From Escherichia phage KEP3: a DNA stretch of 64,000 bases. Position numbers and translations under genes: made by a program. Each line of letters begins with the position of its first letter. The stretch's first letter is position 1. The stretch is from sequence record PP047753; one strand, given 5' to 3'. Below are positions 48,533 to 48,620 of the stretch, piece after piece. Below the pieces are notes generated by a model. That model saw nothing but the letters and a program-made list of their open reading frames with translations, ran no database searches and was not told the origin of the DNA.

Positions 48533-48600
48533 TGCCGAGTGAAGGAATCGAACCTTCGCCTTTTCTTTACCGGAGAAATAGATTGTTTAAGTTTTGCTGT
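48533..48600 (-). pseudogene. tRNA-like 3' fragment (T-arm, acceptor 3' strand, anticodon arm with GGT) lacking pairing 5' half
   Basis: GAAGG-TTCGATT-CCTTC T-arm and TTTCT-CCGGTAA-AGAAA arm present; no complementary 5' acceptor; no CCA. Confidence 0.4.
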
Positions 48601-48620
48601 AAACGGTCTTCTGTAAATTT
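48591..48620 (-). repeat. tRNA-spacer repeat copy 1
   Basis: Identical 30-mer to 49163-49192. Confidence 0.7.

Follow-up and report, generated by a model that had tools for sequence, protein, structure and literature searches.

The tRNA array of Escherichia phage KEP3 (sequence record PP047753; the 64,000-nucleotide stretch analysed here is called the window) lies in a region of Felix O1-like type (Felixounavirus), which about 250 such genomes match with 95-99% identity. By using ARAGORN, we found 26 tRNA genes in the window, which all lie on the minus strand within 43756-49525, and the true tRNAs of the array encode CCA. Here we describe a tRNA-like element that sits within the 455-nt gap between tRNA-Asp and tRNA-Lys(UUU), together with three shorter relatives in the same array and a neighbouring gene for a Ro60-like protein. 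On neither strand does an open reading frame (ORF) of at least 60 amino acids overlap 48160-49190. An earlier note, made from the sequence alone, had described positions 48533-48620 as a tRNA 3' fragment whose 5' half was replaced by a spacer repeat. The observation is real, but it was mis-delimited and misread: the interval ended at 48533, which halves an element whose true extent is about 48478-48622 (Table 1).

Table 1. Coordinates of the tRNA-like element, its parts, the short paralogues and the neighbouring protein gene in the window.
Feature	Coordinates	Strand	Description
Whole tRNA-like element (copy 2), probable Y RNA	48478..48622	-	about 145 nt; bulged closing stem and permuted cloverleaf (minimum-free-energy and centroid folds)
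Closing stem, 5' strand	48602..48616	-	UUAC 48616-48613, bulge AGA 48612-48610, inner helix AGACCGUU 48609-48602
CAGCAA motif	48594..48599	-	just 3' of the stem's 5' strand; candidate protein-recognition element
AUCU, anticodon-stem equivalent	48580..48583	-	pairs with AGAU 48502-48499; links cloverleaf to closing stem
Hairpin UUUCU-CCGGUAA-AGAAA	48562..48578	-	variable-arm ("V") hairpin of YrlA-type RNAs by topology
T-arm GAAGG-UUCGAUU-CCUUC	48541..48557	-	invariant in Ounavirinae
Acceptor-like hairpin ACUCGGC-AGAU-GUCGAGU	48523..48540	-	7 bp, closed by a loop
D-arm GUGU-AAUGGUA-GCAC	48506..48520	-	preceded by UG (48522-48521), equivalent to tRNA positions 8-9
Closing stem, 3' strand	48479..48491	-	AACGGUCU 48491-48484, bulge G 48483, GUAA 48482-48479
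Copy 1, short Y-like RNA	48624..48705	-	GAGC-AGA-AGACCAA ... UUGGUCU-G-GCUC plus UUCAGCAA; without tRNA-like domain; repeat families D8 and D10
Copy 3, short Y-like RNA	49120..49189	-	tRNA-Met/tRNA-Asn spacer; 5' 34 nt the same as in copy 2; repeat family D9
Copy 4, short Y-like RNA	49278..49356	-	tRNA-Glu/tRNA-Met spacer; UGAC-AGA-AGACCAA ... UUGGUCU-G-GUCA
Ro60-like protein gene, 471 aa	49691..51106	-	helical-repeat ring and vWA domain with DxSxS MIDAS; 1.1 kb upstream of the RNA, same strand

A permuted cloverleaf inside a bulged stem

First, the tRNA parts that the earlier note had recognised are indeed present on the minus strand, namely the T-arm (GAAGG/TTCGATT/CCTTC, 48557-48541) and the 3' acceptor strand (ACTCGGC plus an A, 48540-48533). 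Second, the 5' acceptor strand that was said to be lacking is there as well: GTCGAGT, at 48529-48523, pairs with ACTCGGC in seven of seven positions across an AGAU loop. The note had proposed to look for such a partner further upstream; it exists, but downstream. Third, the hairpin TTTCT-CCGGTAA-AGAAA (48578-48562), taken at the time for an anticodon arm with anticodon GGU, does fold, but topologically it is a variable-arm hairpin and its loop is not conserved. It is separated from the T-arm by AGGC. The D-arm, which comes after GTCGAGT and UG and is canonical in form, carries A14, G18, G19 and A21 and is nearly invariant in the Ounavirinae.

The spacer repeat is also genuine, being exact over 34 nt (48588-48621 equals 49161-49194) with a 68% copy at 49328-49361. 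It consists of the 5' strand of the closing stem followed by UACAGCAA, and the partner of its stem strand, AACGGTCTGGTAA, lies 3' of the D-arm. The termini of the element thereby form a stem of 4 bp and 8 bp with a 3-nt/1-nt bulge; in the RNAfold structure the inner helix joins AGACCGUU to AACGGUCU and the outer one UUAC to GUAA, with AGA bulged on the 5' side and G on the 3' side. Minimum-free-energy (MFE) and centroid folds agree in placing four hairpins ("V", T-arm, acceptor-like and D-arm) inside this long-range stem. One inner helix of the MFE fold, CUUA/UAAG, is unconserved in relatives and was dropped for AUCU/AGAU.

When the parts were rejoined in the normal tRNA order, ARAGORN at its default threshold called a 72-nt tRNA-Thr(GGU); in the native order it called no tRNA and found no tmRNA. 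The Rfam tRNA model gave a partial match of 22 bits, against a threshold of 29 bits, over model positions 7-64 only, and the Rfam permuted-tmRNA model returned only noise, elsewhere in the array. The element is a circularly permuted cloverleaf: its acceptor end is closed, and the opening lies on the anticodon side. A strict pattern (T-arm, hairpin of 6-7 bp, 2 nt, D-arm) has a single match in the 64-kb window, and this combination of T-arm, hairpin and D-arm is far beyond chance. The second suggestion of the earlier note, a tRNA-like RNA with a non-canonical 5' domain, was essentially right, albeit incomplete: the 5' domain is a stem strand and the tRNA part is a whole permuted cloverleaf.

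Paralogues, conservation and covariation

The array contains four instances of CAGAAGACC, compared with an expectation of 0.68 for the whole window, and the same bulged stem folds in all four copies (Table 1). Its outer helix covaries among the copies (UUAC/GUAA, GAGC/GCUC, UGAC/GUCA), as does the inner one (AGACCGU/ACGGUCU versus AGACCAA/UUGGUCU), and every copy has YCAGCAA after the 5' stem strand. The tRNA-like domain is found in copy 2 only. Copies 3 and 4 fill the tRNA spacers that hold them almost exactly, and therefore processing of the flanking tRNAs would release them.

Could the repeat act instead as DNA, either as a promoter or as a recombination site for the shuffling of tRNA genes, with the RNA folds being incidental? 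It begins with TTTACA or TTGACA, and some records place promoters in the array. However, our promoter scan, whose total was at chance level, flagged none of the four copies, and we rejected the repeat as a sigma-70 promoter. Moreover, the repeat and its partner strand, which lies 40-115 nt downstream, covary (CCAA/TTGG versus CCGT/ACGG), which is the signature of an RNA helix, and distant relatives retain the helix but not its sequence. A role at the DNA level is thus very improbable.

The whole 145-nt element is 100% identical in phage Bas63, where it lies under a small opposite-strand ORF (bas63_0137). It is present in about 250 Felixounavirus-type genomes, and more than 200 genomes carry it with 95-100% identity. 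In an alignment of seven Ounavirinae phages covering Felixounavirus, Suspvirus and Mooglevirus, the T-arm, the D-arm, a 5' block (TTTACAGAAGACCGTTTACAGCAA) and a 3' block (ACGGTCTGGTAAT) were invariant or nearly so. In the same phages the acceptor-like hairpin is wholly replaced yet still paired: next to the ACTCGGC/GTCGAGT of the window, Suspvirus and some Mooglevirus phages have ACACGT/GCGTGT closed by a UACG loop, and in Moogle and HP1 the strands are ACCCTTC/GAAGGGT and the loop GCCAAACA reads G-CCA-AACA. The supposed anticodon loop varies (CCGGTAA, CTGGTAA, CTATAAA), with a different hairpin in Moogle and HP1. Judged from these sequences, the pattern fits a structured non-decoding RNA and not a decaying pseudogene.

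This bears directly on the proposal that a tRNA was disrupted by recombination at the repeat, leaving a functionless pseudogene in decay. The array does hold other odd tRNA-like remnants, relatives carry homing-endonuclease genes, and an origin from dimeric tRNAs has been proposed for this architecture (10.1101/312249). On the other hand, both halves are present and paired, the element is identical in Bas63 and nearly so in the 200 and more genomes mentioned above, compensatory changes maintain its helices across genera, and unrelated phages show the same plan, only on the strand of the protein gene. The comparative data already contradict a pseudogene, which we consider hardly credible at all. 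A tRNA-tRNA junction as the evolutionary origin of the element is, by contrast, plausible.

We then considered more distant relatives, a set of 75 loci (770 kb) from a scan of viral contigs, in which the neighbouring protein is 39-47% identical to that of KEP3. In the 12 loci checked with Rfam, the protein gene stands beside tRNA genes on the same strand. Over the 770 kb, the strict pattern, with the parts in the order T-arm, acceptor-like stem (AS) and D-arm, gave nine matches on the strand of the protein gene, none on the opposite strand, none when reversed and none in five shuffles. A looser scan, independent of the strict pattern and based on a 7-bp stem with YYC[AC]GCA[AG] and G, gave 87 matches on the protein's strand in 56 of the 75 loci; the opposite strand yielded five, and shuffled sequences 5-12. 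Among these 87, 57 lie at most 400 nt from an end of the gene, and by length the matches form two groups, of about 56-64 nt and of about 96-136 nt. In three loci (L017, L022 and L027 in our numbering) the RNA lies directly upstream of the gene start, before the ribosome-binding site. More core matches clear of tRNAs were added by a covariance model (R1), of which we used only the matches that do not overlap ARAGORN tRNAs, as at E > 1e-3 it returns mostly tRNA-tRNA junctions.

The distant RNAs share a flank plan. It starts with a stem strand of 6-11 bp (often AGAAUCA), followed after 0-3 nt by YYC[AC]GCAA and an A-rich linker. Next come a strand of 4-5 bp resembling the 3' half of an anticodon stem, a variable loop of 4-6 nt, and then the T-arm, AS and D-arm. 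One nucleotide further lie the other anticodon-stem strand, a linker, the complementary stem strand and GAUA. According to this plan, the hairpin of the window maps to "V" and AUCU/AGAU to the anticodon stem. A "V" hairpin in place of the variable loop, as in the window, is found in L035a and is absent from most distant relatives.

Three helices of the tRNA-like part covary as follows. For the anticodon-stem helix, whose strands in relatives were picked by eye, the equivalents are ATTTA/TAAAT (Moogle), ACCGC/GCGGT (L017), ACCGA/TTGGT (L024) and AATAA/TTATT (L035a), with compensatory changes in five of five pairs. The T-arm stem covaries in distant instances while G53-C61 is invariant, and the acceptor-like helix shows compensatory changes in seven of seven pairs across 16 instances. 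In the curated alignment of 16 sequences, 99% of the cells pair against 62% when shuffled, and 18 of 21 pairs are compensatory; none of 500 shuffles reached this pairing and compensation, and slid controls gave 42-46%. MAFFT had shifted the register of the D-arm where D-loop lengths differed and was replaced by a hand-made structural alignment padded with N; it still shifted the first 37 or so columns, hence the closing stem was tabulated by script. In that tabulation the stem differs in sequence in nearly every lineage and always keeps its pairing. Within the CAGCAA region, C15, G17, C18 and A19 are invariant (MAFFT, 16 instances). The RNA is a widespread phage family missed by current models and annotations.

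These relatives also allow us to weigh a genuine permuted or split tRNA gene, cut by RNase P, trimmed at its 3' end and given CCA, whose paired pieces would serve as a chargeable tRNA or acceptor. Consistent with it, ARAGORN takes the un-permuted sequence for a canonical tRNA-Thr(GGU), the acceptor stem has 7 bp with U at -1, and YrlA of Mycobacterium smegmatis offers a precedent for an RNase P cut and CCA addition in vivo (PMC4201824). In three independent lineages, in addition, N-CCA stands directly after the 3' acceptor strand (GCCA in Moogle/HP1, GCCA in L066b, ACCA in L033), that is in three of 15 loops (binomial P = 0.0015). Such a trinucleotide may reflect maturation to a CCA end; equally, it may be a relic of the 3' end of one tRNA with another tRNA behind it. 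Against a decoding tRNA, the relatives' anticodon changes between GGU, AUA and an 8-nt loop, and the arm is absent in most distant ones. Furthermore, the window copy has C and not U at position 33 of its loop CCGGUAA, it lacks the encoded CCA of the array's true tRNAs, and known permuted tRNA genes need a splicing endonuclease and a ligase, which are not known in bacteria. Taken together, a true tRNA gene is quite improbable.

Two further observations concern the distant loci. A block, GGGGAAAG[CT]AAAAACTCGCCAA[AC]A..., occurs in L017, L021, L022, L035 and L041, about 50-60 nt upstream of the Y-like RNAs; either a further RNA motif or the tail of a conserved gene could account for it. In L027, positions 10696-10922 (+) match a group I intron (71.5 bits) downstream of the tRNA genes of the locus.

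The Ro60-like neighbour and a possible role for the RNA

The 471-aa protein encoded upstream of the element on the same strand matches only DUF2828 and DUF7788 in Pfam, is not a member of Pfam TROVE, and falls in PHROG 850, annotated as "RNA-binding protein". It has more than 2,600 homologues, in which the DxSxS residues of the MIDAS (D279, S281, S283) are invariant. An AlphaFold prediction from the single sequence was unusable (predicted local distance difference test, pLDDT, 44); repeated with an alignment of 41 homologues, it reached a pLDDT of 88 and a predicted template-modelling score (pTM) of 0.88. The nine best Foldseek matches in the PDB to this second model are all Ro60/TROVE proteins, aligned over the full length with E 6e-8 to 1e-6: Xenopus Ro60 (2I91, 1YVP), human Ro60, Deinococcus Rsr (2NVO) and Ro60 of Thermus phage phiLo (9KOP, 9L5Y), with 9NFA also among the matches. 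Isolated vWA domains rank after them. A literature search for DUF2828 by name turned up nothing relevant. The counterpart in Bas63 (MZ501086) is gp130, which shares 98.1% identity with the window protein and lies in conserved synteny. According to a PhageMaP preprint, gp130 is similar to Ro60 and acts against the ppl defence; its authors could only guess at Y RNAs concealed among the tRNA genes (10.1101/2024.10.10.617714).

Together, the fold plan, the covariation and the linkage to this gene suggest that the element is probably the gene for a Y-RNA-type non-coding RNA of about 145 nt, in architecture a tRNA mimic of the YrlA class. By analogy with YrlA, the RNA is most likely a partner of the phage Ro60-like protein. 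We treat it as working like YrlA and yet as a distinct variant outside the Rfam family, because Rfam YrlA does not match, the stem motif GNCGAAN0-1G is absent and the protein cannot be recognised as TROVE by sequence.

Several points weigh against this interpretation. First, folding z-scores are weak (-0.1 to -1.7). Second, the sequences used for covariation were found with a pattern that requires pairing and were curated by hand, so the pairing percentage is partly built in. Third, neither phmmer nor the 41-sequence profile finds any Ro60 chain in the PDB by sequence; the protein models as a Ro60 fold, a link that relies on a predicted structure and on TM scores of 0.42-0.65. Fourth, Rfam YrlA (RF02553, gathering score 69 bits) has no match at E <= 10 in 461 nt, and none at its gathering score in the 12 distant loci; as a control, the same model gives 32.5 bits on the YrlA of mycobacteriophage Bxz1. 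Fifth, GNCGAAN0-1G is absent from the stem. The only such site, GGCGAAG, was discarded, as it lies in the wrong place, at the junction of "V" and T-arm, and is not conserved in ESh22 and Moogle. Finally, gp130 alone, on a plasmid or inserted in T7, suffices against ppl and rescues T7 (10.1101/2024.10.10.617714). That phenotype therefore does not depend on the RNAs, and claims about their role are limited accordingly.

This last result is also in line with a tRNA mimic that acts independently of Ro60, as a decoy or sponge for tRNA-targeting defence nucleases, modifying enzymes or other tRNA binders, and that is adjacent to the protein gene only by shared residence in the array. Such a mimic would suit the position inside a tRNA array, since phage tRNAs are thought to counter tRNA nucleases, and no part of the element is more conserved than the nucleotides of the elbow (T-loop UUCGA, D-loop GG). 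Yet the anticodon-like loop, the usual target of these nucleases, is not conserved. Moreover, the bulged stem and CAGCAA are as conserved as the elbow and are common to three paralogues that have no tRNA-like domain, and in distant phages the RNAs with the stem motif cluster within 400 nt of the protein gene, some of them in its leader. For these reasons we find a Ro60-independent mimic unlikely.

From the arrangement of genes and folds we infer how such an RNA would be transcribed, processed, bound by protein and used to recruit an effector. It would be transcribed with the phage tRNA array, and the enzymes acting on the neighbouring tRNAs would cut it free. Its bulged stem, together with CAGCAA, would then bind the Ro60-like protein, while its tRNA-like module would present the elbow of a tRNA to a host factor that binds tRNA; such a factor could be PNPase (compare the complexes of Ro60, Y RNA and PNPase), a tRNA-modifying enzyme or RNase P. 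The three shorter paralogues would present the same stem with other loops, as YrlB accompanies YrlA in Salmonella. Because the acceptor-like stem has 7 bp and U at -1, RNase P may nick the acceptor loop and so yield a two-piece tRNA mimic with a 3' end capable of receiving CCA: the 7-bp stem is stacked on the T-arm, and a stem of this kind would be accepted as a substrate by RNase P.

More tentatively, DUF2828-type protein genes are common beside phage tRNA arrays, and Ro60-like proteins of this type with permuted-tRNA Y RNAs might make up a widespread, undescribed phage ribonucleoprotein system. We see only a modest chance that this is so. Its RNAs would be born at tRNA-tRNA junctions (with N-CCA as a fossil) and freed by tRNA processing, some being nicked by RNase P into mimics ending in CCA, and with their help the protein would intercept, or repair, the damage that host defences directed at tRNA or RNA cause.

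These results have several consequences. Candidate RNA partners are now located for the anti-defence protein gp130, which makes the question testable with defined sequences. They also extend tRNA-mimicking Y RNAs to a large phage protein family that was not recognised as Ro60 by sequence, and the different stem motif suggests that Rfam YrlA misses many such RNAs.

Other features of the array and comparison with known systems

The public annotation of the same locus varies. In OQ174505 (REP6; L005 963-1093) it is a 131-nt "tRNA-Thr GGT", in MZ501086 (Bas63; L092 16749-17023) the small opposite-strand ORFs bas63_0137 and bas63_0138, and in KR014248 (AYO145A; L001 1559-1816) orf047. The two Bas63 ORFs overlap the tRNA-like RNA and the structured RNA next to it. 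With the present analysis, such labels in public genomes, whether a 131-nt tRNA-Thr or small ORFs on the other strand, can be corrected.

The immediate 3' neighbour of the tRNA-like RNA, lying 5' of tRNA-Lys(UUU), is a second RNA of about 145 nt that is structured and conserved (48335-48478, minus strand). In six Ounavirinae, RNAalifold gives it 47 pairs, nine of them with compensatory changes, and a closing helix of about 22 bp; an inner hairpin, CUACAGAC-CUUAAGCAA-GUCUGGGUAG, resembles a miniature of the module formed by CAGAAGACC/GGUCUGG and AGCAA. It has no match to Rfam.

Elsewhere in the array, the interval between tRNA-Ile and tRNA-Met holds a 185-aa ORF (47602-48159, minus strand) with no Pfam match at E <= 0.01. 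HNH endonuclease genes are annotated in or beside the tRNA arrays of relatives, and from their presence there, without sequence comparison, this ORF may be a homing endonuclease. Weak matches to the tRNA-Sec model (46902-46976, minus strand; 23 bits, E 0.53) and to the tmRNA model (47198-47386, minus strand; 14.7 bits, E 0.009) were not called by ARAGORN; the former may be a pseudo-tRNA, because repeat D4 is common to it and to real tRNAs. The repeat family D14, TTTAAGGACTCTCGTAAGAATCCTT, has three copies within the array (44840-44864, 47205-47229 and 48708-48732, plus-strand coordinates), small spacers able to form hairpins, one of which lies directly 5' of Y-like copy 1. Promoter-like sites (TTGACA-N17/18-TAAAGT or TAATAT) are found on the minus strand at 51174-51145, 49672-49644 and 49581-49552, preceding the Ro60-like gene and tRNA-Pro, and one is embedded in a 12-bp hairpin (49680-49649, minus strand) just past the stop codon of the Ro60-like gene. 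They suggest that the tRNA array has its own promoter, although the total of the scan is at chance level.

Three kinds of known system resemble the element in part. Circularly permuted tRNA genes are known in Cyanidioschyzon merolae, some green algae and Thermofilum. As in those genes, the 3' half lies upstream of the 5' half with a short linker, and un-permuting restores a canonical cloverleaf. Those permuted tRNA genes give rise to ordinary decoding tRNAs, in a maturation that involves a bulge-helix-bulge motif, circularisation and a splicing endonuclease, a pathway that is not known in E. coli or its phages; here, in contrast, the termini form a long bulged stem of the protein-binding type and the anticodon is not conserved. 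The two-piece (permuted) tmRNA of alpha-proteobacteria and cyanobacteria likewise has its T-arm and 3' acceptor strand before the 5' acceptor strand, and processing of its loop gives two paired pieces, but the element has neither a tag reading frame nor pseudoknots. Third, Yrl1 and Yrl2 of Thermus phage phiLo are, like the present RNAs, phage Y-like RNAs beside a phage gene of Ro60 fold; they differ in having a stem-bulge-stem with a CGAA motif and no tRNA-like domain, and in lying upstream of the gene outside a tRNA array (PMC12135203).

Ro60 proteins bind Y RNAs, and the closest parallel is YrlA, a Y RNA of bacteria and phages that binds Ro60/Rsr and in which the hairpins V, T, AS and D lie inside a Ro-binding stem, at most 4 kb from the Ro60 gene and on the same strand (PMC4201824). 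Most YrlAs have been likened to "circularly permuted tRNAs", and a model of origin from dimeric tRNAs is cited for this architecture (10.1101/312249). To that proposal of dimeric tRNA transcripts, the array setting and the N-CCA acceptor loops described above bring concrete support. The differences from YrlA are as follows. The stem motif is CAGAAGACC...CAGCAA with GGUCUGG in the present family and AGAAUCA..YCCGCAA with UGAUUCUGAUA in distant phages, the partner is a DUF2828/DUF7788 protein unrecognisable as Ro60 by sequence, and the genes, in four copies, are interleaved with the tRNA genes of a phage array. The similarities are more extensive. First, the order (V)-T-AS-D within a stem made of the 5' and 3' parts is the same, and the RF02553 consensus nests alike. 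Second, the elbow nucleotides are conserved, and a pyrimidine ends the variable loop in most instances. Third, a Ro60-fold gene (by Foldseek, the gene not being annotated as TROVE) lies within 4 kb on the same strand. Fourth, there are shorter paralogues, comparable to YrlB, and the acceptor stem has 7 bp, the length found in YrlA of M. smegmatis. Finally, in the control mycobacteriophage Bxz1, whose Ro60 orthologue is gp220, RF02553 matches 19980-20056, about 190 nt upstream of the gene, and the top match of R1, a model built from five sequences of the present family only, falls at 19988-20050 in the 8-kb region (21.1 bits, E 1.8e-5). Both models match the same spot, and therefore the tRNA-like modules of YrlA and of the KEP3 family are mutually recognisable.

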